A stretch of DNA of 64,000 bases from Anaerolineales bacterium (GCA_017882145.1 JADGQB010000001.1:144-64143); one strand, 5' to 3'. Positions 15,063 to 39,250 are shown, numbered from the stretch's first letter. The notes: generated by a model from the letters alone, not told the origin. Numbers and translations: made by a program.

Positions 15063-16739
15063 TCAACCGATAAGTGTACGGACTTCATCCAGGAATTCAT
15101 CACTAAGGAAATCCCCTTTTTGCATTAAGGCCTGGATCTGCCCCTTGAGGCGATCCTTTTCTTCTGATGTGAGTTCTTTCGCAGTAGAGACAATCACTGG
15201 TATGTCGGCGGTTTCTGGCCTGGCCTTGAGTGCATCCAGAACAGCAAAACCATCCATTTCAGGCATCATCAGATCGAGGATAATAAGATCAGGATGTTCC
15301 TTTTCAACGAGATTTAGTGCTAATTTGCCGTTCTCAGCTTCGTGAATTGTAAAATTTCCTTGAGATTGCAGGATACGTCGAATAAGACGTCTTGCATCCG
15401 GACTGTCATCTACCAAGGCAATGCATGGGAAACGATCGGGTGCCACTCGACTGAGAGCAGCCAATAATCCTTCTTGGGGAGTCTCTTCCATAGAGCGCGC
15501 TGGCAAGACAACATTACGCGCCCAATTGTCGCCAAGGATGAACGGTTCCGTAGGCATCGTATGCCCAGTACAATTTATTACCACAACATCAGTTGGCTTG
15601 ACAACGCCGGCACGCACCAGTTTAAAAAGCCCGGCAATAGCGACTGCGGCGGCAGGTTCGGCAGAGATACCTTCCATTTTAGCCAACATATGCATGGCAC
15701 GGAAAGCCTCCTCATCGCTAACACTTTCGAATACGCCCTTCGTCTCATTTACTTGTTTGGAAAGGAGAGTGAATGCCCGGCCTGGATCGCCGGTTGCCAG
15801 TGTCTCGATGTGGGTACGAGGGGAGGTTACCGGAGTAGCAATATCGGCATGGTTTTTCCAGGCTGTGACCATGGGCGCGCAGCCTTCAGACTGGATAGCA
15901 GCAATAGCAGGAATCCGATCGACGAAATTCATCTTCTTTAGCTCAGAGAATCCTTTATAGACCCCCAGCGGACCCATTCCGCCACTCACCGATTGAATAT
16001 ACCAGTCAGGGGTACGCCAGATAAGGCGGGATTTGCCGTTGGCCTGGGATAGTGGACCAAGTAAGGAGGTGAGCTGTTCTGCAATCTCAAAAGCAATGGT
16101 TTTCATTGCTTCAATGGAGGTGACTGTCCGGGCACCCATATCCAAGTAGAGGTTACGCTGACGCGCGAACTCTGCTGCCACCTGTTTCGCCTGATCGTAT
16201 GAACCAGTAACCTTCACCACCTGGCTGCCGTAGATTGCTATTTCCCGCATTTTAACAGCGGGAACCAAACTGGTGACAAAAGCCCATAATTTAATGCCGG
16301 CGCGGGCACAATAGGCGGAATAGGACATGGCCACATTTCCGGTAGAAGCAGCCACCATTTCAGTAATTCCGGCTTCCTTGAGGGTAGCGATGGTAACGGC
16401 TGCCTGCCGGTCCTTGAATGAGGCCGTCGGCCCCTGGCGCTCATCTTTTATATAAATATTAGGGCATCCAAGCATCATTCCCAGGTTAACAGCCTGAATA
16501 AGGGGTGTTCCACCTTCTCCAAGCATAATAACCGGGTTGGGATTGCGAACAGGAAGAAGTTCGCGATATCGCCAAAGGTCGAAAACCCGCCCCAACAATT
16601 GCGCAGGGAGACTTTTCGAAATGGCATCATAATCGTATTCTGCCTCCCGCCATTGACTATTGCAGCGGGGGCAATTTACCGAAGTCGGAAAATATGGAGC
16701 AGTGTGGCTGCAATCGAGGCAGCGGACGACAAAGGTCAT
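15063..16739 (-). CDS. thrC: Threonine-synthase-like PLP enzyme fused to a C-terminal response-regulator receiver domain
   Basis: 558 aa. N-terminal Zn-ribbon CLDCSH...CPRCNS. PLP-lysine motif GPTASFKDRQ, then MVAASTGNVAMS and SVSGGMG. The C-terminal ~120 aa are a REC domain (IALVDDSPD...DLIILDLMMPEMDG...VSTAKE), roughly nt 15066-15431. Confidence 0.8.
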   Translation of the reverse strand: MTFVVRCLDCSHTAPYFPTSVNCPRCNSQWREAEYDYDAISKSLPAQLLGRVFDLWRYRELLPVRNPNPVIMLGEGGTPLIQAVNLGMMLGCPNIYIKDERQGPTASFKDRQAAVTIATLKEAGITEMVAASTGNVAMSYSAYCARAGIKLWAFVTSLVPAVKMREIAIYGSQVVKVTGSYDQAKQVAAEFARQRNLYLDMGARTVTSIEAMKTIAFEIAEQLTSLLGPLSQANGKSRLIWRTPDWYIQSVSGGMGPLGVYKGFSELKKMNFVDRIPAIAAIQSEGCAPMVTAWKNHADIATPVTSPRTHIETLATGDPGRAFTLLSKQVNETKGVFESVSDEEAFRAMHMLAKMEGISAEPAAAVAIAGLFKLVRAGVVKPTDVVVINCTGHTMPTEPFILGDNWARNVVLPARSMEETPQEGLLAALSRVAPDRFPCIALVDDSPDARRLIRRILQSQGNFTIHEAENGKLALNLVEKEHPDLIILDLMMPEMDGFAVLDALKARPETADIPVIVSTAKELTSEEKDRLKGQIQALMQKGDFLSDEFLDEVRTLIG

Positions 16740-16766
16740 TATTATTAGATTCCTTGGTTGATAGAA

Positions 16767-19730
16767 TTATTTGATCCGTTTAAGAGCTTTATCCAGTGAG
16801 GATAGTAATTCCGATTCGTTTAATGATCCCTTTCGAAGTAAATCCTTACCAAATTCGGTAAGTAGTTTTTGTTGTTCAGGTGTGAGGTCTGCTCCGCTGA
16901 CTACAATCACGGGGATATCACAGAATTTTGGTGTGGTACGTAATTTCTCGAGGATCGTAAAGCCGTCCATGTCGGGCATGAATAGATCAAGGATGACTGC
17001 TTGGGGTGGTTTGATTGAAAGAATTTCCCAGCCTTGAGGTCCACCCTGGGCAAGGATAGGATTGTATTGGCCTTCCCGCAGGATTTTTTCCATGAGCCGT
17101 AAATCTTTCTCGTTATCATCGATGACCAGAACATCATGGATATCTCCCATTCCATTCAGACGATCCAAAGAATTCAATAGATCTTCTTCAAGAATAGGCT
17201 TAACAAGGTAGTCTGATGCACCAAGACTAAATCCTTTCTCATCCTCCTCTAAAATACTGCAGACGATTACTGGAATGTCGCGGGTGTCGGAGTTATTCTT
17301 CAGGTCTGCCAAAACCGTCCAACCATCCCGGCCAGGCATCATGACATCCAGAGTTATGGCGTAAGGCGATAGTTGTCTGGCCCGCTCGACTGCCTGGGCA
17401 GGATCGGTTAAGGCCACCACCTGGTAACCTTGCGGCTGCAGGAAACGTTCATAGAGACTTATCACTTGTGAATCATCATCTACAACGAGGACAATTTTTT
17501 TATCACGCCGGCCTTCAAGGCGATTTCGGCCTTCAAATTCTTTTGGAAGCGGCAAGGTGAAATAGAAAGTGCTGCCCTTGCCTATTTCGCTGGTTACATC
17601 AATCAGACCGCCGTGCAACTCGACCAACCTACGAGAAATCGACAGGCCAAGGCCGGTGCCACCTGTCTTACGAGTGGGTGAAGAATCCACCTGAGAGAAG
17701 GGCTGGAACAACTTGTTCCGGTCTTCGAGTGCAATGCCGGTACCTGTATCTGATACTTTTATGATCACTTCCGGCTGTCCACTTGAATTGGTTTGCACTT
17801 CAGCACTGATGGTGATCGTGCCACCTTCAGTGAATTTGGCTGCATTCGAAAGTAAGTTAATCATCACCTGGCGCAAGCGCATTGCATCGGCACGGATGAT
17901 AGGAATGTTGGGTTCAACCATTTGCTCAAGAGTAATGGGCTTGTCCTTAATCAAGCCATTGACAGTGGGCACGACACTTTGCACTAATTCAGCGACATTA
18001 ACATCATCGAAAGCAAGTTCCATCTTACCGGCGTCAATCTTAGAAAGATCCAGGATATCGTTGATCAGGCGAAGCAGATGTTGACCGGAATTATAGATTG
18101 CGCTGAGGTCCTGTTCCTGTAGGTCAGTCACCGGACCATCAATCCCTTTGATGATGACGCGTGAGAAGCCTATGATCGAGTTGAGAGGCGTGCGCAATTC
18201 GTGGCTCATGTTCGCCAGGAACTGGCTTTTAAGCCGATCCAATTCACGCATTTCGGTGATGGCCGCCTGTGCTAATTCATATGAGCGTGCATTGTCAATG
18301 GCAACCGCAACCTGATCAGCCAGCACCAGTAATACAGCAATATCATCCTGCCTGAAAGCTTCCGTTTCTTCAGACTGGAGGTCGATAACGCCCACTATGC
18401 GTTGACCAATTCGGAGAGGAATGGCGGCCTCCGAGCGAGAATTAGGAAGAAGAGGGTTTACGCGGTAAATTGGATCGACTGCGGTGTTATTGACTACCAA
18501 TGAATTCCCGGTTGAAGAAACAGTACCAACGATCGACCGGGATCCGACCGGAATCGAGTGGCGGCGATGCACCATCTCTTCACCAGCCAGACCAGTGGCT
18601 GATTTTAGAATCGCCGTGAATCCAGTTTCCTCGATGGTGAAAATCGCGACATGATAAAAACCAAAGCGTTCATTGATCAGGTTGACTGTCCGGCTGAAAA
18701 GAGTATCCAGATCGAGGGTCGAAGTGACCAGACGGCCAATTTCTGCTGAGGTAGCAAGGTATTCATTTTGGCGACGCAGGGTTTGTTCAGAACCTTGTGT
18801 TTGCTCGAACAAACGGGCATTTTGGATGGCAAATCCAATTTGACGGCCAATCGTCTGCAATAGGGAAATCCCATTTTGTGAAAAAGGTCCCGGAGCACTT
18901 CGGAATCCACATAAAGTGCCTAGAGTTTGACCCTTCGATTCGATGGGTATACCTAGGTAGGAATAAAATCCAGCATCCATCTCTCCAGTTAAGTCAACGG
19001 GTCCGCCTTTACGAAAATCCTCGATAACCAGAACCTCTCTTTTAGAGAATACGACACCGCATAATGATTCTTCCATTCCTTCCGCCGGATCATCGGGCAT
19101 TTTTCCGGGTAACCCTATGCGGGCTGCTCTTTCGAGTTTTCCACGGGCTTCGTTGTACATCGTAATCAGTCCGCCGTCAAAACCGGCGGCTTCGATGGCT
19201 TGCTGAAGAACGATATTAAGAATTTCCTTAATTTCAAGAGTTTGGCTGGCTGATCCTATGATTTCATTGAGGGTAGCCAGTTCTGCATTTCGCTGTTGAG
19301 TCTCGTTCAGTAACAAAGCGTTTTCAAGCGCCAGGGAAAGCTGATCTGTTACTTGCTTGGCGAGAAGCTGATCATCTTCGCTCCAGGTACCTTTATCAGC
19401 GGGACTGACAACTTCAAGAACACTCCACTTATCGGTTCCGGTACGAAATGGCAAAGTGATTGTGTTCGACTCAATACTCTGATCAATGCCAAGGAGTTCC
19501 TGAGGTATGGATCCCAATGCGCGTGTGCCCATTTGAGAGCGCATACTTCTTCTCTCAGGATGAAAATCCTTAATGGGAATAGTTATTGGCTCCTGCACCT
19601 CGACCGTTTTTTCGAGGCGAGGCTCTGGCCCAGAAGGCTCAGCGTTCAGAGGCTTTAGGGATGGTCCTTCCGCTTGCTTGATATCTATAAAAAGTTGATC
19701 AAGCCGCTTCTGAATTCGTTTGCTCGACAT
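16767..19730 (-). CDS. Hybrid sensor histidine kinase (half-GAF, GAF, GAF, HisKA, HATPase_c, REC, REC)
   Basis: 987 aa. Its GAF carries RFGFYHVAIFTIEE and NPLLPNSRSEAAIPL, the same subtype as the neighbouring receptor paralogs. H-box FLANMSHELRTPLNSIIGF. HATPase motifs NLLSNAAKFT, DTGTGI, GGTGLGLSISRRLV. Two receivers (IVLVVDDD...LDVMMPGRDG and VLVIDDNE...LDLFMPDMDG). Confidence 0.9.
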   Translation of the reverse strand: MSSKRIQKRLDQLFIDIKQAEGPSLKPLNAEPSGPEPRLEKTVEVQEPITIPIKDFHPERRSMRSQMGTRALGSIPQELLGIDQSIESNTITLPFRTGTDKWSVLEVVSPADKGTWSEDDQLLAKQVTDQLSLALENALLLNETQQRNAELATLNEIIGSASQTLEIKEILNIVLQQAIEAAGFDGGLITMYNEARGKLERAARIGLPGKMPDDPAEGMEESLCGVVFSKREVLVIEDFRKGGPVDLTGEMDAGFYSYLGIPIESKGQTLGTLCGFRSAPGPFSQNGISLLQTIGRQIGFAIQNARLFEQTQGSEQTLRRQNEYLATSAEIGRLVTSTLDLDTLFSRTVNLINERFGFYHVAIFTIEETGFTAILKSATGLAGEEMVHRRHSIPVGSRSIVGTVSSTGNSLVVNNTAVDPIYRVNPLLPNSRSEAAIPLRIGQRIVGVIDLQSEETEAFRQDDIAVLLVLADQVAVAIDNARSYELAQAAITEMRELDRLKSQFLANMSHELRTPLNSIIGFSRVIIKGIDGPVTDLQEQDLSAIYNSGQHLLRLINDILDLSKIDAGKMELAFDDVNVAELVQSVVPTVNGLIKDKPITLEQMVEPNIPIIRADAMRLRQVMINLLSNAAKFTEGGTITISAEVQTNSSGQPEVIIKVSDTGTGIALEDRNKLFQPFSQVDSSPTRKTGGTGLGLSISRRLVELHGGLIDVTSEIGKGSTFYFTLPLPKEFEGRNRLEGRRDKKIVLVVDDDSQVISLYERFLQPQGYQVVALTDPAQAVERARQLSPYAITLDVMMPGRDGWTVLADLKNNSDTRDIPVIVCSILEEDEKGFSLGASDYLVKPILEEDLLNSLDRLNGMGDIHDVLVIDDNEKDLRLMEKILREGQYNPILAQGGPQGWEILSIKPPQAVILDLFMPDMDGFTILEKLRTTPKFCDIPVIVVSGADLTPEQQKLLTEFGKDLLRKGSLNESELLSSLDKALKRIK

Positions 19731-20484
19731 ATTGGATCAGCTCCTCAGCCAGGCTCCGATATTGGAGAGCACCACGGCTGTGCGGTTTATATTGCGTAAT
19801 GGAAAGACCAAGGATGGGACTCTCGCGCAGTTTGGTATCAATTTCAATGACTGTTTTGAATAGACCAATTCCAAACGTACGTTCCAGTTGGTCGCGAATA
19901 TCCCGATGGGTGCGGTTACGTTGGTCAAGCAGAGTAACAAGAATGCGATAGGCTAATTTTGGGTTGTCTTCGCTGCGTACCTGTCGAATGATGGACATCA
20001 TGTCGCGCAAGGCATATGCCGAAAAATATTCAGCTTGAGTAGGAACAATCAGCAAGTCGGCCGCCGTTAGAGCATTGATTGTTATTGCTCCCAAAGAAGG
20101 TGGACAATCAATCAGGATGATATGGTAAGGCAGGTTACTTTCGCTTTCGATCGCAGTGCGCAACCGGGAGGTGTAATTCAAATAAATGGGTAAAACCTGT
20201 TCAGCCTGTTCCAAACCGGTACTTGCCGGAATAAGGTCGACACCCGGAATATTGGTTGCCTGGCACGATTCCAGTAGCGGTGCAGAGTCTAGCAGTACAT
20301 CGCCAGAGGTGTGTTCCATTTTGCCGGGCTCAAATCCTAATGCAAGGGTCAAGTTTGCCTGCGGATCGAGATCGATAAGCAGGACCTTTTGGGCAGCTTC
20401 GGCGAGCGCTGCACCTAAAGATAGGGTGGAGGTCGTCTTGGCGACGCCGCCTTTTTCATTGGAAATTGCGATTATATATGCCAT
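19699..20484 (-). CDS. ParA/MinD-family P-loop ATPase (orphan, no ParB nearby)
   Basis: 261 aa with deviant Walker A SNEKGGVAKTT, then LLIDLDPQANLT and IILIDCPPSLG. The 3-prime end overlaps the start of the hybrid kinase by 32 nt. Confidence 0.85.
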   Translation of the reverse strand: MAYIIAISNEKGGVAKTTSTLSLGAALAEAAQKVLLIDLDPQANLTLALGFEPGKMEHTSGDVLLDSAPLLESCQATNIPGVDLIPASTGLEQAEQVLPIYLNYTSRLRTAIESESNLPYHIILIDCPPSLGAITINALTAADLLIVPTQAEYFSAYALRDMMSIIRQVRSEDNPKLAYRILVTLLDQRNRTHRDIRDQLERTFGIGLFKTVIEIDTKLRESPILGLSITQYKPHSRGALQYRSLAEELIQYVEQTNSEAA

Positions 20485-20505
20485 GGTTTCTCTCAGAGAG
20501 AATTC

Positions 20506-21972
20506 CTATACTACTTCCGCCGGCTTGGATGGTTTGTGCCTTTTAAGGTTGGGTTGATTTTCGTTATTTTGGGTTACAGGCGAGGAATAAGGGCGGATGT
20601 GAATATTATCAGCGCCCAAGGCTCGCTTGAGCTCATCCAATGCAGTTTGGAGCATTACTTCCGGGTCGGTGGTACTACGGATGCGGGTGGTTATTTCAGA
20701 AACTGTGCGCTCACGATTTGCACGGCCCGTAGTCTCTTCGAATAGGCGTGCATTTTCCAGCGCCAATCCCACACGGTCTGCAATTGCCTGGATGATGCTG
20801 ATCTCTTCTACCTGCCACACACGATCTGGATCCGTTGAACGGATATCCAGTATACCGATGATCTGTTCGTGTACCCGTAAAGGAATCGCCACTGCTGCTT
20901 CACGGTTGGAGTTTTTATCTGAAGCGAGAATAACAGTTTCCCCATTTTTAATTGCTTGTTGGGCTTCTTCCCACTCGATTGGATCAGTGAGTCTTTTATC
21001 ACCAGTTATCGTGTGGAGATAGCCAAGCTGCTGCTCCCTGGATACCTTTTCCCAGGCTTGAGAACTAAATCGCCTGGAAAATGCCTGGGCTTCAGCCAAA
21101 GCGCGTTGCGTTTCACTATACAGCTGTGAATTTTCGATGGCAATGGCGATCTGATCTGCAAGGATCGCGAGCGTATTCGACCTTTCTTTTGAAAAGGCAT
21201 CTGGGTCCTTGCTCTGCGCGTCGATAACGCCGATTATTTGATTCCGTACCCGCAACGGCAAGGCAATTTCCGAGCGCGTTTCAGGCAAATTTGGGTTATT
21301 AAAATACACTGCGTCTTCACCAACCTCTGAAGCTATGCGCGCTATCCCTGTGGCCGCAACATTTCCCACAATCCCAACCTGCCCGACCTCCAACCGATGG
21401 GCGCGTTCCAGCATGCGTTGACCTTCGACGCTGTTCGAGGCCTTCAAAACGGCAAATTTCCTGGCCTCGTCCAGAAGGAAAATGCCCACGTGGTAGAAGC
21501 CAAACCTTTCGCTCAAAAGCCGGGTTATCAAGGGAAGTAATTTTTCAATATCCTGTTCCATGGACATTACCCGGGCTACTTCTGAAATAAGTTGAAGCTC
21601 TTCAGCAGCAAACTTTAATTTGAGGGCGTCCAAACGGCGTCCTTCAATCTCGGCTTTCAAATCCTGATTGAGCCCTTGAAGTTCGGAGATTCTTTCTGTT
21701 ACTGTCTGCTCAAGGTGCGTTTTAATCTGAATCAAACTATCTTCGCGCTTGCCAGCTACGCTTAAGGTCAGTCCCAAGAATATTGGGGCGGAATCAATTA
21801 TCCATAAAAGTTTTTGGCTTTGCTGCGCCTCTACAAAAGCCGCCCATCCAATCGGTAGATGGTTTATCCAGGCATAAAGAAGCATTCCCAGGATTGGAAA
21901 GAGACATCCAGATAGAATCCCAAATATAGTATAACGAAATGTCGAAGTTTTAAGAATGGACGTGCGTTTCAT
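20506..21972 (-). CDS. Membrane GAF-GAF signalling protein, paralog 7 (2 TM, coiled coil, GAF, short GAF-like module, truncated GAF start)
   Basis: 488 aa with RFGFYHVGIFLLDE (codons at 21490-21507), NPNLPETRSEIALPL and ADQIAIAIENSQLY. Second module ends AVAIPLRVHEQIIGILDI...LALENARLFEE. Tail is RERTVSEITTRIRSTTDPEVMLQTALDELKRALGADNIHIRP. I recognised no kinase, cyclase, MCP or DNA-binding output. Confidence 0.85.
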   Translation of the reverse strand: MKRTSILKTSTFRYTIFGILSGCLFPILGMLLYAWINHLPIGWAAFVEAQQSQKLLWIIDSAPIFLGLTLSVAGKREDSLIQIKTHLEQTVTERISELQGLNQDLKAEIEGRRLDALKLKFAAEELQLISEVARVMSMEQDIEKLLPLITRLLSERFGFYHVGIFLLDEARKFAVLKASNSVEGQRMLERAHRLEVGQVGIVGNVAATGIARIASEVGEDAVYFNNPNLPETRSEIALPLRVRNQIIGVIDAQSKDPDAFSKERSNTLAILADQIAIAIENSQLYSETQRALAEAQAFSRRFSSQAWEKVSREQQLGYLHTITGDKRLTDPIEWEEAQQAIKNGETVILASDKNSNREAAVAIPLRVHEQIIGILDIRSTDPDRVWQVEEISIIQAIADRVGLALENARLFEETTGRANRERTVSEITTRIRSTTDPEVMLQTALDELKRALGADNIHIRPYSSPVTQNNENQPNLKRHKPSKPAEVV

Positions 21973-22055
21973 GCTGACTCCTGTAAATTCGCAGCGTGAT
22001 TAGAAACTCGAAAGGATCCATAAGGAAGCTACGTAGATTGCATTTGATTATCCGG

Positions 22056-24896: not shown

Positions 24897-24942
24897 TTTA
24901 TATCCTGTCTACCCGGGAATCTTTCAGGAGATGACATTCTTC

Positions 24943-27613: not shown

Positions 27614-27640
27614 TGATTCGCCTATTCCTTGTCCGGTCTA

Positions 27641-29554: not shown

Positions 29555-29671
29555 TTCCGAGCTCCTTTATTATTACAACGATCAGTGATCAGCGATTGTT
29601 GCAATATTTCACGAAATTTGGTCATTTTATTGATTGCCACTTCGATCTCGAGTTGGTTTACTTTCGAACAC

Positions 29672-32149
29672 TTAGGAAGACTTCGAACTCACGTCTTTCG
29701 AAGCTTGCGGGGAAGAGATATAAGCAGATACTTCTGCGACATTAGGCAACTGGTGTAATTCTCGAATAGCGGTTTGTAGAATGGTTTCCGGATCAAGCGA
29801 GCTGCCCAGATTCGCCGTCAGCTTACTCAAGGATTGTTCCTGAGCTGCGCGCCGTTGGGCTTCATCAAGCAGACGGGCATTTTCAAGCGCCAAGCCGACC
29901 TGGCTGGCAATTTCCAGGGCCAGGGCACGGTCTGTTTCATTCCAGGTTTTTTCTGTCTTGCGCTGTAAAACAATCGTTCCAAGAGTCTGGCCGCGCAGTG
30001 TAATGGGAATATTCAGCCGATCTGAGGATGTATCACCATTGGTCGGCATATTCCCTGGCTGAGTTGCGGAGGTAAATCCCATGGAAGTGTACCTGTAGGA
30101 GTGCTTGTTTAGGCGAACGCGCTCCCTCCATACCTGGCGGATATTTTCTGACGTACTCATTTCAAGCCGCTGGATCGCGTCCTGACTTTCTGTTAGCAAG
30201 CGAGCATTTTGAATTGCCAACCCGATTTGATCTGCCATCGTCTGCAACACATCGATATCATCCTGATGGAACGCCGATGGCTGTGTTGATTGGATATCCA
30301 GAATACCGAGAACATTTCCGCGCGCCTTCAAAGGAATGGCTGCCTCAGAACGGGTTAACGGCAAGTCGGGGTTATGATAATAATTTGGATCGTTTTCAAC
30401 ATCCATGACCACTTGAGAACGATTCTGGTAGGCTGATGTGCCGACGATACCTTGTAAACCAACTACAAGTCTGTGTCCACGGGCCAGCATCTTTTGTCCG
30501 CCTTCGGAAGAGGCTGCCTGTAGTACAGCATGTTCTCCGGAATCATCCAAAAGGAAAATGCCGACATGATAAAAGTCGAAACGATTCGTGATCAAATCAA
30601 CAGTACGGGTTAACAGCGTCTTAAGATCCTGGGTTTCTGCAGCATCATGCGCAACCAGGGCGGCAGACTGAAGGGAGAGAGTCTTTCGAAGCAGATCGTT
30701 GGTGCGATCCTCCACTTGTTGCTCAAGTGATTGGATCATGCTCCTCATGGATGCCGTCATTGTGTTGATTGCTTTTGCAAGTTTTCCCACCTCATCCCGG
30801 CCACGAATTCCGGCTTCAGCGGAAAGATCCCCTTCTGTAATTGCTTCAGCCGTTTTGGTAAGGGCTATCAGGGGGGATGTGAGACTGTTACCAATCAGGA
30901 GGGTGGCGATTAATGCCACTACCAGGATTGCAACCACCAATAACAGGCTGCGCGTCAGCGTGCTGGTTGTCTGCAGGGCAATCTGTTGTTTGGCAGCGAT
31001 CGCATTCGCTAAAAGCTCATTCGAAGGAGCAATAATTACAAGCCCGTACCCTATGGCCGGGATGGGATCATACGAAACAAAACGTTCGACGCCTCCAAAA
31101 GATAAGGTGTCGATGCCACTTTTTCCGGAAGCGGTTTTATCAAATACACTGAACAAGCTTGCCGGGATACCTGAGGGTTTCGTGGGGTCCAAAACTTCGC
31201 CGAGTGGCACTGTTTCAGGAGTAAGGCCCAGATCCTTATAACCGGCGGCAGGCATTGCGATCAATCGCTTATTTTTATCAATCAAAATGGCATAACCGGT
31301 CTTTCCAACCTGGATGTTGGATACCAGCTCGGTAATTCTATTAAGCTGGATGTCCATAGCGGTTACGCCACGGAAGTTGCCTCCCGAATCAAACACTGGC
31401 GCACTGGTAGTTACGATCAGTCCATGAAGCGCTGCATCAAGGTAAGGATCAGACCACACCGATTTTCTTTGTGGGTTTTGCGCCGGCGAGGCCTTCAAAA
31501 ACCAGGGCCGGCTGGTTACATCGAAATCAGGAGGAACGATTGCCGCCAGATCGATATTGGGATAATAGATGGTCTCACCCGACGTGCCGCCGAAGTAAAT
31601 GGCGACCGTATCCGGATTCTGTTTAAGAATAATTGGTACTGTCAGATCCAGTTGCTTGATCGTATCCAGCTCAACAGCCAGGTCAGGTTTAAGTTCTACT
31701 TTGGCAGGAACAAAGACCGAACTAATTTCAGAATTTAAATTATCCCAGGATCCATTCGGCAGGCGTTCCAGTGCCATGAATGCATTCCAATATGAGACGT
31801 TATTCAGAGTCGATTCATCCGTAAGCAGATTCGATGCCGTTGTACCGATTGTGGTGATGTCCCGGCTCATTAAAACGAAGAAGTTATTCAATTCCATTGC
31901 GCGGGCGGTACTAATATTGGTCAATCCATCTTGAGCTTGTTGAAGTACATTTTTTTCCAGCTGGCCCGTAAGGTATGTGTTTGCCTGGTTTGTGCGTGAG
32001 TACACATAATAGCCCGTTCCCACGATCGCCAAAGCGAGTACAAGCATATTGCCGAGGATTAGTTTGGCGCGTAAGCTAAGCGATCCCAAAAACGCAGGTC
32101 TTTTAGCGACAGATTTGGTAGGCAGCGGATTATTATTCATATTACCCAT
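29672..32149 (-). CDS. Membrane GAF-GAF signalling protein, paralog 3 (TM, double-Cache-like, TM, HAMP, GAF, GAF-like module, truncated GAF start)
   Basis: 825 aa with a ~350 aa extracytoplasmic region that has Cache-like features (RPWFLKA..., DPYLDA..., VTTSAPVF). HAMP is LTSPLIALTKTAEAITEGDL...DEVGKLAKAINTM. GAF has RFDFYHVGIFLLDD and NPDLPLTRSEAAIPL. Tail is QEQSLSKLTANLGSSLDPETILQTAIRELHQL. Confidence 0.85.
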   Translation of the reverse strand: MGNMNNNPLPTKSVAKRPAFLGSLSLRAKLILGNMLVLALAIVGTGYYVYSRTNQANTYLTGQLEKNVLQQAQDGLTNISTARAMELNNFFVLMSRDITTIGTTASNLLTDESTLNNVSYWNAFMALERLPNGSWDNLNSEISSVFVPAKVELKPDLAVELDTIKQLDLTVPIILKQNPDTVAIYFGGTSGETIYYPNIDLAAIVPPDFDVTSRPWFLKASPAQNPQRKSVWSDPYLDAALHGLIVTTSAPVFDSGGNFRGVTAMDIQLNRITELVSNIQVGKTGYAILIDKNKRLIAMPAAGYKDLGLTPETVPLGEVLDPTKPSGIPASLFSVFDKTASGKSGIDTLSFGGVERFVSYDPIPAIGYGLVIIAPSNELLANAIAAKQQIALQTTSTLTRSLLLVVAILVVALIATLLIGNSLTSPLIALTKTAEAITEGDLSAEAGIRGRDEVGKLAKAINTMTASMRSMIQSLEQQVEDRTNDLLRKTLSLQSAALVAHDAAETQDLKTLLTRTVDLITNRFDFYHVGIFLLDDSGEHAVLQAASSEGGQKMLARGHRLVVGLQGIVGTSAYQNRSQVVMDVENDPNYYHNPDLPLTRSEAAIPLKARGNVLGILDIQSTQPSAFHQDDIDVLQTMADQIGLAIQNARLLTESQDAIQRLEMSTSENIRQVWRERVRLNKHSYRYTSMGFTSATQPGNMPTNGDTSSDRLNIPITLRGQTLGTIVLQRKTEKTWNETDRALALEIASQVGLALENARLLDEAQRRAAQEQSLSKLTANLGSSLDPETILQTAIRELHQLPNVAEVSAYISSPQASKDVSSKSS

Positions 32150-32152
32150 TTA

Positions 32153-34084
32153 TCAGTCTGGTTTCAGCTCGACCGTAGCTTCATCGGCATGAAGTGCACG
32201 GCCGAGTTCCTTAATGGCAGTTTGAAGAATTAGATCTGTGTTGGGAGAGGACCATACTTTTCCGATGATCTCGGCTGCCACGCGTTCCCGCAGGGCTGTT
32301 TGGCGGCTTTCCTCGAGCAGGCGGGCATTTTCCATAGCCAGAGCTGCCTGGGTAGCCACAGCTTCCACCAGACTGTGCTCTTCAGGTGTCCAGTCCTGTT
32401 GACCCTCGAGATGCAATTGTCCAATGATTTGTTCACGAAGGGTCAAAGGAACATCGATCATGGATAGCTCTTCACTCGAGATAATCGTTTCCGGCGATGT
32501 GTAATCATATCCTTCGCTTTCCCGCGTAGTTTCGAACCATGTTCTGGCTACATATTCCTTCTGGACAATGCGCAAATCCTCGAGGCTTTTTTGTGTTTCG
32601 CGGAATAAGCGGGCATTATCCAGGGCTGTAGCAACGCTATTTGCCATACCTTGAAGAGTATCAATATCTTGTTCGGTAAATGCGGCTTCCTGAATGGATT
32701 GCACATCCAGAACGCCGATGATCCGTCCGGTAATTGTCAAGGGCAGGGCGATCTCTGAGCGTGTATCCGGAAGAAGTGGGTTTTCAAAACGGACCGGCTC
32801 CGCACCAACATCCAGGGCGATGCGGGCTTGGCGTGTGGCGATGGCTGTGCCGACCATGCTTTTTCCGCCCAACGGGAGCCGGTGGCCGCGTGATTTCAAT
32901 GTCTGACCGGCAGACCCGGTCGCGTCCTTAAGAACTGCCCATTGTCCAGATTCATCTATCAGGAAAATAGCGGAATAGTAATAGCCAAAACGGTCGCTAA
33001 TCAGGTTCACTACTTTTGTGATGAGTTCGTCAGGATCGAGAATGGTACTTGCGACCCCGCTCACTTCAATTGTGGCTTTTAGCTGATCGGTCCGTTTTGC
33101 TACTTCGCTTTCCAGGGTTCCCTGTAAATTGTCCAGTCTGGTGATCATCCGGTTAAAGTGCACGGCCAACTCGCCGACTTCGTCGGTCGCGTTGACCGTA
33201 GTGCGCTGCTTTAGATCCCCGTTTTCGACCTTGTCCAACACCGCGATGATTTGGTGAATTGGATCGGACACACCACGTGAAAGCAGGAGCGAGAGCAGGA
33301 ATCCAAGCACCAAAGCTACGACTGCAGCAACCAGAATTTGGTATTGAAGACTTCGCAAAGCGCCTTGCGTTCCAATCAAGCCGTTGACCAATACAGTAAT
33401 GGTACTGTGATAGCCAACAGGTGCCACCAGGAGAACGCTTACGAGAATCAAGATAAAAATAACCACCAACAATTTAGTCAGGATTCTCGCCCCTTTGGAA
33501 CCAGACAGCTGTCTCTCAAATTCCTGAGGGATGAGGAGTGCCCTGGCAGGGGCTAACAAGCGATCGATCAATAATACGCCCAGAGCGATAATGACGGAAA
33601 CAGAGACAATTGCTCCCATTAAAACGTACAGGAGTTGATTTGTGGAAGCTTTCAGGCTGAGACTCATAAACCCAAGCAAAGGCAGGATTTCTACAACAAT
33701 TGCCACCACCATTGAGGCGATGCCATATCTCCACCCACAAGCAGTGACCTGTTTCCAAGCCTGAAGTTCTTTTTCTTCTTCCAGATCAGATGGTTGAAGG
33801 CCTTCCAACAGCTTTACCAGCCGGATACGCACCTGCCGGTAGGTAAAATGGATCCAAAGAAGAAGGATAATATTTCCGAGTACAATCATGCCGGCAGTGA
33901 AAAAACCAGCCTGCCTGAATTGTTGTCCGGTAAATTCGGCATTCGATTGTACAAAAAATGCAACCGGAATGACTAATAGATTTGGAATCAGTTGGGCGAA
34001 GAGAACAACCAAAACCAGGAAGAATCCTTTGGTTTTGAGCAGGATTCGTCCCAGGAGGGTAGCGGACAGATTGGTTTTGTCCAT
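32153..34084 (-). CDS. Membrane GAF-GAF signalling protein, paralog 2 (multi-TM, HAMP, GAF, GAF-like module, truncated GAF start)
   Basis: 643 aa. HAMP is VSDPIHQIIAVLDKVENGDL...DEVGELAVHFNRM. GAF has RFGYYYSAIFLIDE and NPLLPDTRSEIALPL. Tail is RERVAAEIIGKVWSSPNTDLILQTAIKELGRAL. There is only a 3 nt gap to the next gene. Confidence 0.85.
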   Translation of the reverse strand: MDKTNLSATLLGRILLKTKGFFLVLVVLFAQLIPNLLVIPVAFFVQSNAEFTGQQFRQAGFFTAGMIVLGNIILLLWIHFTYRQVRIRLVKLLEGLQPSDLEEEKELQAWKQVTACGWRYGIASMVVAIVVEILPLLGFMSLSLKASTNQLLYVLMGAIVSVSVIIALGVLLIDRLLAPARALLIPQEFERQLSGSKGARILTKLLVVIFILILVSVLLVAPVGYHSTITVLVNGLIGTQGALRSLQYQILVAAVVALVLGFLLSLLLSRGVSDPIHQIIAVLDKVENGDLKQRTTVNATDEVGELAVHFNRMITRLDNLQGTLESEVAKRTDQLKATIEVSGVASTILDPDELITKVVNLISDRFGYYYSAIFLIDESGQWAVLKDATGSAGQTLKSRGHRLPLGGKSMVGTAIATRQARIALDVGAEPVRFENPLLPDTRSEIALPLTITGRIIGVLDVQSIQEAAFTEQDIDTLQGMANSVATALDNARLFRETQKSLEDLRIVQKEYVARTWFETTRESEGYDYTSPETIISSEELSMIDVPLTLREQIIGQLHLEGQQDWTPEEHSLVEAVATQAALAMENARLLEESRQTALRERVAAEIIGKVWSSPNTDLILQTAIKELGRALHADEATVELKPD

Positions 34085-34104
34085 AAGGTATTTCCTCTCA
34101 GCCT

Positions 34105-37100
34105 CTACTCTGAACTCGAACGAGACTCAGTTGTGGATTCTTCAATTTCGAGAGTGATTTGTGCACGTCGTGCACCGAGAACTTTGCTTAATTCGCTGGT
34201 GGTGGTGGCCATGATCGTTTGCATATCCGTGGAACGGCGGATCTTACTGGTCACTTCATAGAGCATTCGTTCGTGATCCACCTGACGACGAACCTGCTCG
34301 ATCAGGCGGGCATTGGAAATAATGGCTGCGAGACTGCCGCCCAAAGTACCCAGCAATTCCTCGTCATTTTCGTTATAGGCGCTCACCTGGTCGCTCTCAA
34401 CGTTCAAGACGCCCAGCAAGTCTCCACGATACGAAAGCGGAATTGCCAATTCAGAGCGTATATTGGATCCAACCTGGATGTAACGAGAATCCAGCGTGAC
34501 ATCATTAATCCGCTGAGGCAGTTGATGGACGGCAACCCATCCCGTGATACCTGCCCCGAAGGGGACTTCAAGTTTCCCAATTTCTTCGGAGTACCCTGCA
34601 AAGGAACTGACCTTCAGGGTCTTCTTCGCTTTATCAGCCAATAAAATCGAAACACGATCCCCACCCAAAGTCACCTGCAAGCCTTGCGTGGCACTATTCA
34701 AGGATTCCTCAAGCGTAGTTCCGGATGCGGCAGCGGTGGTAACATGGTGCAGTAGGCGGTGTTGGGAAAGGTGCTCTTGTGTATCCGCGAACAACTCTGA
34801 GTTGATCACTGCAATCGCCATTTGGTCTGCCAGGATGCGCAATATACGGATATCTTCTTCCGCGAAGGAATAAGCCCGGGTACTCTGAACATCCAGGGCT
34901 CCGAGGATACGCTGTCCCACTTTTAGGGGAATAGCAGCCTCAGCATGGGTTTCAGGCAAAAGCGGGTTGGCATAATAAGTTGCATCCCGGCTTGTATCGT
35001 TGACGATGAGCGCTTCACCGCTGCCGGTGACGTAGCCTACGATGGATTTGGATCCAACCTTTAATTTATGACCTGCACGTTTCATCTGCTTGCCGGCCTC
35101 GCCAGTGGCCTCACGAATGGTTGCGTACTCGTTAGTCTGGTCGAGCATAAACACGGCCGCGTGATAGAAATTGAACCGCTCGTAAATCAGTTTAACTGCT
35201 TTATTGAGCAGCTCACCCAGGTCGAGCGAACCTGATATATCCCGGGCGACTTCTGCTGCAGTCTGAAGTTGAATAGCGCGGGCACTCATTTGATCCAGAA
35301 GGCGTCCATTGTAGATCGCGGCCGCGACCTGGATCGCGAAGCTGGTCAGTAGTTGCAAGTCGCTTTCATCGAAGGCGTGTTCATTTTCCACATCTTGGAC
35401 AATCAGAGCTCCGATTGCCTCATCAGCAACGATCAAAGGCGTGCCGAGCCAGGATTTGGCCGGCTTACCCGCAATTTTAGCCCCGAGGGCAGCTGCCCGA
35501 TTCTCTGTATCTTCAACCAACAATAAAGGCTGCTTGGTACGTATTAAGATGGAAGTCAATCCCTCTCCAAGGGGGAATGTGTCTATGCTTGTAACATCGC
35601 CACCTTCAAATCCCTTTTCATACATATACGGGATGGATATCGAGCTGGTATTGGCGGTGTAGATTGCCACCAGGAAATTTACGTCTCCCATTAACAAGCG
35701 GATACGGGAATGCAAAGTGGTATAGATAGTATTTAAATCTCGAATGGAAGATATTTCTTTACCAATAGAAATGATGGTCTCCATCTCTGCAAGACGGCGC
35801 TCCACCTTTTGTAAAGTATTCAGACGTTCAATGGATGAAGTTAGCAGATCGGCGACATGCGTATATGCTTGAACCATCTCCGGTAGAATAGGTTGTTCTC
35901 TACGCGACCCGACGATCAATAATGTTGTGATTTCCTCTTTGCGCATTACTGGAACAAAGGCTACGGATTGGAATAGCGCCTGTTCGATGATCTTAAGTAG
36001 TGCGGATTGCAGCAAGGGCAGTTTACCGGTTTCTCCCCCAATAAATTTGTTCAACTCTGGATGAAATTGGGCATAGTGGAGGGAAGAGAGTTTGCTTACT
36101 TCGGCGACCAACGTTTTATTTGCAAGTTGCTCGGATACTTCTTTGGGCGAAAGATCCAGCCACTCCGGTAAACCAAGGATTCCACCACTTTGGTCTGGAT
36201 CCACGCTGGTAACAACCCGGAAATTATTCTTCTCAGACAACATAAAGATCGCACCAGAGTTCGTCTGTTGGAACACACTCTGGGTGACATTAAATACTTC
36301 TCCAATATTCGATGAGTTCGAGATATCTCCGGCAAGTTCGGCAACTGTTTGCAATTGGGTATTAATTGTGCCCATTTCTGTAATCCGATGCTCGGTCGCT
36401 TGATTATCACGAATGCGGTCAAGTGAGACAGCAACTTGCTTGGCTAAATTGCTATAAGGCTGCATGCTGGTAGTATTTAATGGTTCCCTGGTCTGGGTGC
36501 CGATTAAAAAGACCGCAGCAAGCGACTCGGTGCATTTTACGGGGATGACTGCCACGCTGAAAATCTGGATCTGTTGAAGGGAACGGACCAGGTTGTAGGG
36601 CAAGGAACTTAACCGATTGCCTTCGCCGATAAACAGGTTAGATCCCAGGTATGGTCCAATCTCATCGATGGAAATTGCGATCGATTCGGGCAATTTTTGG
36701 CCGCCCGACAGTTCCAGATCCGTTTTTGCCGCAGCTTTAAGCTCATTCCCCTCAGGGATCAGGTACAAGGCGACGTACGGAATTCTGGGAAAGAGTTCCT
36801 GCATTATTTGGCAGATATCAATTTCGGTTTTCGCCTGGGCAACTTTAAATCCAGCCTGGTATACCTCCGCAACTTCTTGAATGCTACCTTTTTCGGCTTC
36901 GAATTGGTACACATTCTGGATGGAGGTTGCAATTTGGCTGGCCAGCATTTGAAGTACGACAATGATTTCATTGTCAAAGGCAGTCGTCCGGGTGCTTTGT
37001 AAATCCAATACACCCAGTAAACTATCTCCTCCCAGGATGGGTATTGCCAACTCAGACTGATTTCCAGGCAGAAGTTCCGCCTCCAATTGGAGCGGATCCC

Positions 37101-38016
37101 CGGTCAACCTTGTTATCAGACGTTGTAGTTTGTTTTCGGCGACCCATCCAAGCATGGAGGGGGGACCATAGGGGATGCGCTTTCCTTCCCCGACCAATCG
37201 ATCCGCATCTGGACCCTGAGCGGTCTTCAGAAATAGTTCGCGCCTGGTTTCATTTGCAAGGTAAAAACCAGTAAAAGAAAATCCCATACGTGCGTTGATC
37301 AGATTTACGCCCTGATTTAATAATGTGTCGATGGATGAAGTTGAAATCAGGTCTTGAGCGATTTCGGCGGCGATCCTGGAGAAGCGTGTACGCTCTTCGA
37401 TACGCTCTTCCAAGCGGTTTTGCAAGATGCCGATTTCATCCTGCTGCTGGGTTTCAGATTTTTCCCGGAACCACGCGATAAGAATAAAAATCCCTACAAT
37501 GATCCCCAGCCCAATAAAAATATTCAGTTCTGTGCTGGCTGTAATATTGGCCATCAAGGGCAGAACGCCTATGGTAATCATCACAACGATTGAAATAATG
37601 ACGATCGCCAATAACGGCAAGAGAACAATGCTTAGCGTAAGGGCAGGGACAACTGTGGCCATCAAAATAATAATCACAGATGTGTTTACCGAATAAACCG
37701 AACCCACTATAAAGCCAGATAATATAATGCCGCAAACCAGTAAAATACTTCCCACTATAAAATTTTCAGAGCGCGCCAGCGCCAAAGCGGCTGACATCAT
37801 GATGGCTAATACGAACAGACCAATGGTGAGACTGGTTGGGAAACCAATGATCAAACCGACTATCCCGGCAATGAAACAGCCGGCAGCCAATATCAAGGAA
37901 ACGAGATTCGTCAGGTGCGCCTGTTGTCTTGAGCTGGAATCTTTGATGTTAGGGTGTGTCTCAAGGATTCTTCCTATCAATCCTTTGATAGTAAGCTTCT
38001 GTTTAGCTGGCAACAT
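34105..38016 (-). CDS. Giant membrane multi-GAF signalling protein, paralog 1 (about 6 TM, coiled coil, about six GAF modules, truncated GAF start)
   Basis: 1303 aa with a hydrophobic N-terminal ~190 aa. GAF-terminal helices recur: ASQIATSIQNVYQF, LAKQVAVSLDRIRD, VADLLTSSIERLNT, FAIQVAAAIYNGRLL, ADQMAIAVINSELF, LGGSLAAIISNARLIEQ. The fifth GAF is the cluster subtype (RFNFYHAAVFMLDQ, NPLLPETHAEAAIPL). Tail is HERMLYEVTSKIRRSTDMQTIMATTTSELSKVL. ATG 38016 is preceded by AAGGAG. Confidence 0.85.
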   Translation of the reverse strand: MLPAKQKLTIKGLIGRILETHPNIKDSSSRQQAHLTNLVSLILAAGCFIAGIVGLIIGFPTSLTIGLFVLAIMMSAALALARSENFIVGSILLVCGIILSGFIVGSVYSVNTSVIIILMATVVPALTLSIVLLPLLAIVIISIVVMITIGVLPLMANITASTELNIFIGLGIIVGIFILIAWFREKSETQQQDEIGILQNRLEERIEERTRFSRIAAEIAQDLISTSSIDTLLNQGVNLINARMGFSFTGFYLANETRRELFLKTAQGPDADRLVGEGKRIPYGPPSMLGWVAENKLQRLITRLTGDPLQLEAELLPGNQSELAIPILGGDSLLGVLDLQSTRTTAFDNEIIVVLQMLASQIATSIQNVYQFEAEKGSIQEVAEVYQAGFKVAQAKTEIDICQIMQELFPRIPYVALYLIPEGNELKAAAKTDLELSGGQKLPESIAISIDEIGPYLGSNLFIGEGNRLSSLPYNLVRSLQQIQIFSVAVIPVKCTESLAAVFLIGTQTREPLNTTSMQPYSNLAKQVAVSLDRIRDNQATEHRITEMGTINTQLQTVAELAGDISNSSNIGEVFNVTQSVFQQTNSGAIFMLSEKNNFRVVTSVDPDQSGGILGLPEWLDLSPKEVSEQLANKTLVAEVSKLSSLHYAQFHPELNKFIGGETGKLPLLQSALLKIIEQALFQSVAFVPVMRKEEITTLLIVGSRREQPILPEMVQAYTHVADLLTSSIERLNTLQKVERRLAEMETIISIGKEISSIRDLNTIYTTLHSRIRLLMGDVNFLVAIYTANTSSISIPYMYEKGFEGGDVTSIDTFPLGEGLTSILIRTKQPLLLVEDTENRAAALGAKIAGKPAKSWLGTPLIVADEAIGALIVQDVENEHAFDESDLQLLTSFAIQVAAAIYNGRLLDQMSARAIQLQTAAEVARDISGSLDLGELLNKAVKLIYERFNFYHAAVFMLDQTNEYATIREATGEAGKQMKRAGHKLKVGSKSIVGYVTGSGEALIVNDTSRDATYYANPLLPETHAEAAIPLKVGQRILGALDVQSTRAYSFAEEDIRILRILADQMAIAVINSELFADTQEHLSQHRLLHHVTTAAASGTTLEESLNSATQGLQVTLGGDRVSILLADKAKKTLKVSSFAGYSEEIGKLEVPFGAGITGWVAVHQLPQRINDVTLDSRYIQVGSNIRSELAIPLSYRGDLLGVLNVESDQVSAYNENDEELLGTLGGSLAAIISNARLIEQVRRQVDHERMLYEVTSKIRRSTDMQTIMATTTSELSKVLGARRAQITLEIEESTTESRSSSE

Positions 38017-38074
38017 CAGGTTCTCCTTGGAGAATATTCAAAATTTACGCGGGGATTGGTCGAAGATTACCTGG

Positions 38075-38545
38075 TTAGCTCATTTCCCAGACCGGAGCAC
38101 CGTTAAGAATGTTGCGAATTTGGTCTGGAAAACGATCGGGGTCCAGCGGTTTTCCCAGGAATCCATCAAATCCTGAAGATCTGGCTTTGTCCATCTGCTC
38201 AAGACTGGCTTCGGCAGTCACTGCGACGATGGGGACCTGTTTCAGACGTTCGGACGCCCGAATTTTCTTCAATGCGCCATAGCCATCTTCGTAAGGAAGG
38301 CGGATATCCATCAAAATTAAATCCAGGCGCGGCAGTGTATCCGCATATTCCACAACTTCATAACCAGATGTCTTCCATTCGCAGTGGATACCCAAGTATC
38401 CCAACATGCGCGCGATCAGGACAAAGTTCGATACATTATCTTCGACCACCAACACGGTGCAATCTTTTGGAATTGCTGACCTTCGGTTTGGTTGGGTATC
38501 AGATTGGGGAATTCGAATGGTATCTTGAGAGTCGGGCATATTCAT
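38075..38545 (-). CDS. Stand-alone CheY-like response regulator (receiver only)
   Basis: 156 aa with VLVVEDNVSN, LILMDIRLPYEDG, VAVTAEA and FLGKP. There is no output domain. The start overlaps the upstream stop by 4 nt. Confidence 0.85.
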   Translation of the reverse strand: MNMPDSQDTIRIPQSDTQPNRRSAIPKDCTVLVVEDNVSNFVLIARMLGYLGIHCEWKTSGYEVVEYADTLPRLDLILMDIRLPYEDGYGALKKIRASERLKQVPIVAVTAEASLEQMDKARSSGFDGFLGKPLDPDRFPDQIRNILNGAPVWEMS

Positions 38546-38916
38546 TTTTTCCTCAGGTAACGCTCTATTTGCTGGGGAAGTAGGTCAATGTCAATCGGTT
38601 TTTGGATGTACCCATCACAGCCGGCTTCCAGGGATCGTTCACGGTCGCCGCGCATTACATTGGCGGTAAGCGCTACAATAGGGACACTCTCAAATCCCGG
38701 CATGGCACGGATCTGCGCAGTAAGCGTGTACCCATCTACTTTGGGCATGTTGATATCCATCAGGATCAAATCCGGACATAGGGAAACAAGCATATCCATA
38801 GCTTCCCCCGCGTCACCCGCCTCTTTTAGCACATAGCCTTCAGCAGTTAGAATCCTGCGTATAAGTGTTCGATTGTCGAGATTGTCTTCAATATAAAGAA
38901 TGATGGCACCGCTCAT
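38542..38916 (-). CDS. Stand-alone CheY-like response regulator (receiver only)
   Basis: Preferred start is ATG 38916 (MSGAIILYIEDN). Motifs LILMDINMPKVDG, VALTANV and YIQKP. The longest ORF extends to 38979, but the extra 21 residues are Cys-rich and outside the REC fold. Confidence 0.8.
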   Translation of the reverse strand: MSGAIILYIEDNLDNRTLIRRILTAEGYVLKEAGDAGEAMDMLVSLCPDLILMDINMPKVDGYTLTAQIRAMPGFESVPIVALTANVMRGDRERSLEAGCDGYIQKPIDIDLLPQQIERYLRKK

Positions 38917-39136: not shown

Positions 39137-39178
39137 GATCATCAAAAGGGTTTGAGTTCCCTTTTGGCGGTGTTTTTG

Positions 39179-39250
39179 AGCGGGTGATGGGACTCGAACC
39201 CACGATATCTTGCTTGGGAAGCAAGCGTTCTACCACTGAACTACACCCGC
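39179..39250 (-). tRNA. tRNA-Gly (anticodon CCC)
   Basis: Minus-strand sequence is GCGGGTGTAGTTCAGTGGTAGAACGCTTGCTTCCCAAGCAAGATATCGTGGGTTCGAGTCCCATCACCCGCT. Acceptor stem GCGGGTG/CACCCGC. Anticodon stem CTTGC/GCAAG with loop TTCCCAA. T-arm GGTTCGAGTCC. Discriminator U. CCA is not encoded. Confidence 0.9.

Follow-up and report, generated by a model that had tools for sequence, protein, structure and literature searches.

The minus strand of a 64,000-nt stretch of DNA from an Anaerolineales bacterium (GCA_017882145.1, JADGQB010000001.1:144-64143; hereafter the window, to whose first letter all positions refer) carries 14 open reading frames (ORFs) that encode two single-domain receivers (RR1 and RR2), seven transmembrane (TM) receptors, an orphan substrate-binding protein, a ParA-like ATPase, a hybrid histidine kinase (HK), a threonine-synthase-like enzyme fused to a receiver (ThrC-REC, or PALP-REC after its Pfam domain) and an EamA-family transporter. 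The locus is a real, widely conserved sensory system of Anaerolineales, which are abundant filamentous bacteria of sludge, sediments and soils whose signalling is, to our knowledge, almost unstudied. Its best explanation, which we hold with slightly better than even confidence, is that the many kinase-less receptors feed the one soluble hybrid kinase. The evidence is indirect and lies in the gene and domain content of the locus, the absence of output domains from its receptors, its conservation across genomes, the homology between receptor and kinase modules, and a natural fusion of the two proteins. A preliminary description of the window, made from its sequence alone, had listed the same genes with several overlaps and short gaps; an ORF listing agrees with it on coordinates, order and spacing, with overlaps of 4, 8 and 32 nt and gaps of 3-117 nt between neighbours (Table 1). 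Base composition is even over the whole region.

None of the seven paralogous receptors carries an output domain, as the preliminary description had proposed. Pfam and NCBIfam match only dCache_1, HAMP and GAF domains in these proteins and detect no HisKA, HATPase, MCPsignal, GGDEF, EAL, cyclase or DNA-binding domain; an AlphaFold2 model and Foldseek are in agreement. A hydropathy scan finds 2-8 TM segments in each receptor. The uniform layout that had been put forward (sensor-HAMP-GAF-GAF) is too simple a description of the seven proteins. Three of the seven (643, 825 and 946 aa) have a HAMP above the Pfam cut-off, the 637-aa receptor has a sub-threshold one, and the 1303-, 567- and 488-aa receptors have none. 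The second GAF (GAF-B) is GAF-like but reduced, its matches to Pfam GAF models being confined to their C-terminal half, and precedes a conserved two-helix tail. The 1303-aa receptor has a multi-TM N-terminus, at least four GAFs (four Pfam GAF stretches), a GAF-A-type domain over residues 930-1075 and a C-terminal tail. In the 643-aa (multi-TM, HAMP), 825-aa (dCache_1, HAMP), 637-aa (~160-aa periplasmic domain, sub-threshold HAMP), 567-aa (six TM segments) and 946-aa (multi-TM, partial dCache_1, HAMP) receptors, the parts in brackets are followed by GAF-A, GAF-B (small in the 643-aa protein) and the tail.

The AlphaFold2 model of the 488-aa receptor (predicted local distance difference test, pLDDT, of 82.7) begins with a TM hairpin, an 85-residue helix, GAF-A (142-254) and a 52-residue helix, continues with a GAF-like domain (317-378), and ends past this tandem in two helices of 45 and 16 residues and a disordered terminus. 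Foldseek matches the model to the tandem GAFs of PDE5A, PDE2A and CyaB2 and to phytochrome GAF-PHY (E = 1e-10 to 1e-9). In an alignment of 57 family members, conservation peaks in GAF-A and the first tail helix, where the top-residue frequency is 0.71 and 0.69, respectively, compared with 0.34 in the sensor region; the tail includes a conserved R-A-x-R-E-R stretch, and in 53 of the 57 members the chain ends 9-34 residues past the tail. The model and this early chain end together argue that the receptors are truly output-less and that their conserved C-terminus is a helical cap. A circularly permuted GAF, formed from the tail and the half-GAF, is not supported, as the model shows a small ordinary GAF-like domain and two helices. 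A search of 1.84 billion representatives with a GAF-B/tail profile was rejected as a family count, being unspecific and topped by giant poly-GAF proteins; because the profile also fits ordinary inter-GAF junctions, no count of the kinase-less family is derived from it. These giant proteins (P0317-P0466) reach 3952 aa and up to 21 matched repeats. Other proteins (P0244-P0256) combine the first GAF subtype of the hybrid kinase (FDGGLIT type) with a receptor-type C-terminal tail, a combination which shows that the kinase and receptor lineages have shuffled their modules.

The hybrid kinase and the receptors are complementary, since Pfam and the hydropathy scan find neither a TM segment nor an extracytoplasmic sensor in the kinase. 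Its chain consists of an N-terminal peptide, a disordered linker, a mini GAF-like module, a GAF, a GAF-A-type GAF, HisKA, HATPase and two receiver (REC) domains. Against a profile of the receptor GAF-As, the GAF proximal to the DHp domain (337-483) reaches 158 bits. Its identity to the individual receptor GAF-As is 37-48% for six of the seven and 25% for that of the divergent 567-aa receptor, which falls within the range of 22-62% found among the receptors themselves; two further GAF kinases of the window have GAFs that match the profile, at ~40 bits and with 11-26% identity to the receptor GAF-As. Further, in nearly all of ~60 orthologues, the first folded element of the kinase matches positions 54-164 of the receptor GAF-B/tail profile (~34-77 bits). 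A moderate-confidence model of kinase residues 1-340 contains a three-strand mini-module (pLDDT of 51-74 in this region), a long helix and a full GAF; its underlying alignment is shallow, as the search with these residues returned mostly fragments shorter than 600 aa. Conceivably, the mini-module and the receptor tail would make up a split GAF, the tail supplying the missing part.

In one genome, receptor and kinase are a single protein. The locus L007:6563-10660 (CAWFBZ010000008.1, a 1.78-Mb contig without N's) encodes an in-frame 1366-aa fusion whose N-terminus and GAFs resemble the 1303-aa receptor and whose last 874 residues align at 67% identity with the kinase from residue 91 onwards, with the junction located exactly in the homologous inter-GAF connector helix (...INSELFsDTQ/QRNAELATLNE...). 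RR1 (cut to a 90-aa ORF) and RR2 precede the fusion, and ThrC-REC and EamA are kept; the other receptors, ParA and the N-terminal 142 residues of the kinase, including its peptide, are lost together. As judged from its sequence, the fusion argues that a receptor module can drive the hybrid kinase.

The ParA-like ATPase is closest to T. thermophilus Soj (full-length alignment, 2.4e-41), matches AAA_31/CbiA in Pfam, and contains the deviant Walker A motif KGGVAKTT with its signature lysine, the DLDPQ motif and the equivalent of the catalytic Asp-44. It has no TM segment by hydropathy scan, no ParB-like gene is found in the window, and no exact-sequence match to it is on record. Its stop codon overlaps the start of the kinase by 32 nt, and the kinase itself begins with an amphipathic, K/R-rich peptide. 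Across 67 orthologues, the consensus is M-(P/S)-K-K-x-K-I-(D/N)-K-R-L-D-K-L-F-x-D-I-x-P-E-E, with R14 conserved in 64 sequences and F19 in every one; L or I occupies position 15 in all 67 and position 18 in 66. The first 20 residues contain 4-8 K/R versus a background mean of 2.6, and the hydrophobic moment is 0.52-0.56; the model predicts a helix at residues 3-21 followed by disorder to residue 62, with a P/A/S/T/K-rich stretch after the peptide. Activators of ParA/MinD ATPases (ParB, MinE, ParG and PomX) carry a short cationic N-terminal extension on an interaction domain, and TlpT and McdB are probable further activators of the same design (PMC7993993). The kinase N-terminus fits this pattern, making stimulation of the ATPase its candidate function. 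Taken together, the activator-like peptide and the overlap of the ParA stop with the kinase start indicate that ParA probably has the kinase as its partner or cargo. A comparison of the peptide with the PDB returned only a cationic amphipathic ribosomal-L1 peptide (E = 0.27, not significant) and no ParB peptide.

The conservation of the locus was examined from several of its genes. Searching 5.8 billion proteins with the 488-aa receptor yielded >5600 matches; the best 120 of them have only HAMP, Cache or GAF domains, and the named ones among these 120 are called "GAF domain-containing protein" and belong to Anaerolineales or Chloroflexota. Each of the four receptor homologues whose surroundings were inspected belongs to a cluster of this type; that of the homologue with 41% identity to the query consists of eight complete receptors and one edge-cut receptor, a ParA, a 1536-aa kinase and a PALP-REC. 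Moreover, the PALP-REC fusion was used to scan one genome per GTDB species and recovered 80 loci, whose titles name Anaerolineales, Anaerolineae or Chloroflexota in nearly all cases and other taxa (Blastopirellula, Thiobacillus and Lewinellaceae) in three. The loci were annotated with hidden Markov models built for this analysis. PALP-REC is covered over its full length at 71-92% identity in all 80, a kinase lies upstream of it in 74 and EamA directly downstream in 76. ParA immediately precedes that kinase in 62 of the 66 loci where its position is readable, and its stop codon overlaps the kinase start in these 62, by 23-41 nt in 51; the larger overlaps in the others are apparent, arising from longest-ORF start calls. 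The rest of the flank is filled with receptors.

A metagenome scan with the 1303-aa receptor recovers the other end of the unit, where a polyprenyl synthetase gene, RR1 (124-133 aa), RR2, a receptor like the 1303-aa protein and further receptors are found, so that the 1303-aa receptor is the first receptor in other loci too. The linkage that the preliminary description had proposed is conserved, and the homologues are not scattered: receptors, ParA, kinase, ThrC-REC and EamA stay together over 80 species-level genomes, with RR1, RR2 and the 1303-aa type at the 5′ end. Receptor number and type differ between genomes; the RR1-RR2 head and the ParA-kinase-ThrC-REC-EamA core stay fixed. Median identities to the window across the 80 loci are 74% for ThrC-REC, 65% for both ParA and the kinase core, 57% for EamA, 45% for the 488-aa receptor and 35% for the 946-aa receptor. 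At three loci (L037:6090-10732, L055:6942-10738 and L022:6487-10747), the hybrid kinase is two consecutive ORFs (e.g. 490 + 1060 aa), either through real gene fission or through assembly frameshifts. At another (L025:5283-9958), receptors and ParA are missing from the locus and a soluble kinase of 1259 aa comes directly after RR1 and RR2; the N-terminus of this kinase has an R-R-L-E-A-I-F motif, which is like the K-R-L-D-K-L-F of the peptide.

On the output side, Response_reg domains occur in RR1, RR2, the kinase (twice) and ThrC-REC, with DxxMP-type acceptor motifs in the sequences. ThrC-REC has an N-terminal zinc ribbon, a PALP domain whose nearest structures are genuine threonine synthases (1e-39 to 7e-43) with an invariant S-F-K-D-R motif for pyridoxal phosphate (PLP), and a C-terminal receiver that is invariant, as is its acceptor, D489. 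It falls below the NCBIfam equivalog cut-offs (251.6 vs 303 for PRK08197; 157.7 vs 167.1 for TIGR00260). Since the PALP domain resembles threonine synthases and the E. coli threonine/homoserine exporter RhtA is a member of the EamA family, receiver-controlled amino-acid synthesis and export is a plausible output. ThrC-REC is far better conserved than the rest of the locus across the 80 species, and could serve these organisms as their housekeeping thrC. The identification of the ParA-like ATPase, the hybrid kinase with two receivers, the thrC-receiver fusion and EamA in the preliminary description agrees with Pfam, which matches the enzyme part of the fusion to PALP.

Together, these observations suggest the following mechanism. 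Each of the seven kinase-less receptors would sense a different external or membrane cue, some of them probably with the orphan periplasmic binding protein as a co-sensor. The signal would pass down a dimeric rod, through HAMP where present, a coiled coil, GAF-A, a second coiled coil, the small GAF-B and the two-helix tail, and the receptors would act in trans on the single soluble hybrid kinase. Their contact is probably homotypic, because the kinase has both a DHp-adjacent GAF of the GAF-A subtype and an N-terminal copy of the receptors' C-terminal module. The Soj-like ParA, translationally coupled to the kinase, probably binds its K/R-rich N-terminal peptide. It would then act on the assemblies of kinase and receptors in the way that PpfA acts with TlpT and ParC with ParP in chemosensory systems, by positioning or partitioning them. 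Phosphoryl groups would flow to the two receivers of the kinase, RR1, RR2 and the ThrC-fused receiver, and the ThrC-like enzyme and EamA transporter would provide a metabolic or export output.

Several points weigh against this mechanism. We infer, from the observations above, the regulation in trans, the interaction of ParA with the peptide, the routes of phosphotransfer and the output. The N-terminal peptide of the kinase could instead be an amphipathic helix for membrane binding or for other docking. No Hpt domain, which a classical hybrid-kinase relay would use, is found in any ORF of the window. The receptor-kinase fusion was found once, in a metagenome-assembled genome. The half-GAF/tail profile fits ordinary inter-GAF junctions in thousands of poly-GAF proteins, so the homology between the receptor tail and the kinase N-terminus is not unique to this pair. 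Finally, the probably unrelated polyprenyl synthetase gene is also syntenic, as are a GIDA-family gene and an M28 peptidase gene, according to the conserved position of a 409-aa kinase (5400-6629) beyond them. Because such neighbours share the synteny, conserved order alone is weaker evidence of shared function, and some of it may be inertia.

These last two points are what would be expected if the neighbourhood were coincidental, i.e. if a tandem GAF expansion had occurred in a rarely rearranged region, with receptors that have unlinked partners or are accessory: the three probably unrelated genes hold their positions in the same genomes, and the profile is widespread. A varying receptor set between a fixed RR1-RR2 head and a fixed core is harder to reconcile with coincidence, and stop/start overlaps, a shared GAF-A subtype and an in-frame fusion are unexpected for unrelated neighbours, which leaves this as the least probable of the alternatives. 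Homology could also be retained with no receptor-kinase contact at all, if every GAF-A bound one small intracellular molecule, perhaps linked to the ThrC-like enzyme or to EamA; the receptors would buffer, sequester or release this ligand upon outside cues and the kinase would read it. GAF-A is indeed the most conserved part of the receptors and its subtype adjoins the DHp of the kinase, GAFs are classic small-molecule binders, and the nearest structures are tandem GAFs that bind cyclic nucleotides (cNMP). We nevertheless consider both the shared ligand and its buffering by the receptors improbable, as no ligand can be named, the L007 fusion is a direct covalent coupling, and the conserved tail, the receptor-module copy at the kinase N-terminus and the coupling to ParA are left unexplained.

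The joint absence of receptors and ParA from the loci L007 and L025, where the kinase, RR1, RR2, ThrC-REC and EamA are kept, allows a further interpretation, in which the receptors mainly control the nucleotide cycle or location of ParA and thereby place a cellular structure in the filament, with the kinase acting in parallel or downstream. ParA always lies between the last receptor and the kinase, and the conserved R-A-x-R-E-R of the receptor tail would fit as well. Here, however, the details of the ParA-kinase pair point the other way: ParA is translationally coupled to the kinase and not to a receptor, the cationic N-terminal peptide that is the usual signature of an activator is found on the kinase, and the kinase is the only cargo encoded nearby. 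A ParA-directed output is accordingly unlikely in our estimation, and receptors that feed the soluble kinase remain our preferred reading.

The NMT1/SsuA-like binding protein has a signal or lipoprotein leader and, in related loci, is always directly upstream of a Cache-type receptor of ~945-960 aa; it is probably a co-sensor for that downstream receptor. At two other loci (L086:8762-9913 and L085:6694-7902), a Peripla_BP_6/ANF_receptor binding protein or a 402-aa multihaem-cytochrome-like protein is found directly upstream of a receptor, which suggests that proteins in this slot are periplasmic co-sensors.

The unit is bounded upstream by a tRNA-Gly(CCC) gene, located between the polyprenyl synthetase gene and RR1, and its terminator-like hairpin, which mark the start of the signalling operon. 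A riboswitch or leader upstream of RR1 was ruled out, as the promoter-like and terminator-like sites there belong to the tRNA gene and an Rfam scan of this region matches only tRNA-Gly. Within the unit, terminator-like matches are not clearly more frequent than in shuffled sequence and lie inside coding sequence, with no convincing intergenic terminators. The longest RR1 ORF begins at 38979 (38542-38979); the shorter start used here agrees with its 124-133-aa homologues. Downstream, three divergent genes (GAF-GAF-HK, REC-GAF-HK and an OmpR-type regulator) are co-conserved in most of the 80 loci, and the 409-aa kinase keeps its position in most of these genomes; all four may form a downstream or transcriptional branch of the same network. 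Elsewhere, the window encodes a 1168-aa protein with a PMT_2 glycosyltransferase domain and NHL repeats (45782-49288) and a second EamA transporter (2867-3757).

Table 1. Coordinates of the signalling unit and its flanking features in the window, in the order of the minus strand.
Feature	Coordinates	Strand	Support
Promoter-like site of tRNA-Gly	39289-39262	-	TTTTCA-16-TATAAT, upstream TG
tRNA-Gly(CCC)	39178..39250	-	Rfam tRNA 74.3 bits; ARAGORN
Terminator-like hairpin of tRNA-Gly	39136-39117	-	
RR1, single-domain receiver, 124 aa from ATG at 38916	38542..38916	-	Response_reg 5.6e-27
RR2, single-domain receiver, 156 aa, 4-nt overlap with RR1	38075..38545	-	Response_reg 4.5e-20
Receptor 1, 1303 aa	34105..38016	-	
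Receptor 2, 643 aa	32153..34084	-	
Receptor 3, 825 aa	29672..32149	-	
Receptor 4, 637 aa	27641..29554	-	
Receptor 5, 567 aa	25910..27613	-	
Orphan NMT1/SsuA-like substrate-binding protein, 324 aa	24943..25917	-	NMT1 8.4e-23; SsuA_fam 8.7e-38
Receptor 6, 946 aa	22056..24896	-	
Receptor 7, 488 aa	20506..21972	-	
Soj-like ParA/MinD-family ATPase, 261 aa	19699..20484	-	AAA_31 1.1e-45
Hybrid histidine kinase, 987 aa	16767..19730	-	HisKA 6.6e-22; HATPase_c 2.6e-31
Kinase N-terminal K/R-rich amphipathic peptide, residues 1-21	19668..19730	-	Alignment of 67 orthologues; model
Threonine-synthase-like PLP enzyme-receiver fusion (PALP-REC), 558 aa	15063..16739	-	PALP 2.9e-64; Response_reg 1.2e-21
EamA-family transporter, 317 aa, last gene of unit	14087..15040	-	EamA 1.5e-29
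GAF-GAF-HK (885 aa), REC-GAF-HK (531 aa), OmpR-type regulator (265 aa)	9066..14073	+	

Should the kinase indeed be regulated in trans by the receptors, the arrangement of many sensors with one kinase would have evolved at least once more, with GAF tandems replacing methyl-accepting domains, and a ParA ATPase would have been independently recruited to a signalling complex. Thousands of entries named only "GAF domain-containing protein" would gain a function, and the locus points to a first receiver-controlled threonine-synthase-like enzyme. The preliminary description knew of no described system with this architecture, and a search of the full-text literature likewise found no published description of it or of a threonine synthase-receiver fusion.

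Known systems share individual features with the locus. The tandem GAFs of phosphodiesterases, CyaB2 and phytochrome GAF-PHY have the same fold and a rod-like helix-GAF-helix-GAF-helix arrangement; theirs are fused to a catalytic output, whereas the receptors have no effector. Hybrid-kinase phosphorelays resemble it in their HisKA and HATPase kinase with fused receivers and separate receiver proteins. UhpC-UhpB is a three-component system with an accessory kinase-less sensor, and delegates sensing to a separate membrane protein in a similar way. The locus differs from both in having at least seven paralogous accessory sensors, a ParA partner and a receiver fused to a PLP enzyme, with no Hpt found. 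In the stressosome (RsbR paralogues, RsbS and RsbT), variable sensors with a conserved C-terminal domain jointly control one kinase, and this logic of paralogous variable sensors converging on one kinase is the same; however, Pfam finds no STAS domain or RsbT-type kinase at the locus, and its receptors are membrane proteins.

The chemosensory (MCP-CheW-CheA) systems, built on methyl-accepting chemotaxis proteins (MCPs), are alike in combining many receptors and variable sensors with a common conserved cytoplasmic module, and in a kinase module that is paralogous to a receptor-side module, which recalls the pair of CheA-P5 and CheW. In ParA-positioned chemosensory systems (PpfA/TlpT of Rhodobacter sphaeroides and ParC/ParP of Vibrio), the receptors are encoded with a single kinase, single-domain receivers and an ATPase of the ParA family, as they are here. 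The preliminary description had compared the locus to chemoreceptor arrays, and the part of that comparison in which receptors feed one kinase is indirectly supported by the shared GAF-A, the N-terminal module and the fusion; the defining chemosensory proteins and domains are absent. In particular, MCPsignal (PF00015) is not detected in the seven receptors by Pfam or NCBIfam and the model shows a tandem GAF without a helical hairpin; the coupling module here is the GAF tandem. The window encodes no CheA-type kinase, the kinase being of the HisKA type with two fused receivers. Nor does it encode CheW, CheR or CheB, as had been noted, and no methylation-based adaptation is apparent. TlpT is described as having a cationic N-terminal peptide (PMC7993993); here such a peptide is found on the kinase, the likely ParA partner. 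The cyanobacterial PixJ/Tax photoreceptor MCPs also span the membrane, contain HAMP and GAF domains and have CheY-like receivers encoded alongside them (PMC11181946). PixJ differs from the locus receptors in having MCPsignal and in signalling via CheW and CheA homologues.

As the defining domains of both are absent, the locus is neither a chemosensory system nor a stressosome; its kinase and receivers make it a two-component system, and "array-like" describes it by analogy. Tentatively, and with clear doubt, it may be viewed as a third bacterial multi-receptor apparatus besides chemosensory arrays and stressosomes, one in which kinase-less TM receptors would dock on one soluble hybrid kinase by means of paralogous GAF and helix modules, a Soj-like ParA, recruited by the ParB-like N-terminal peptide of the kinase, would position or partition the assembly, and the output would be metabolic or intercellular, through control of a ThrC-like enzyme by phosphorylation and through an exporter, instead of motility or transcription.

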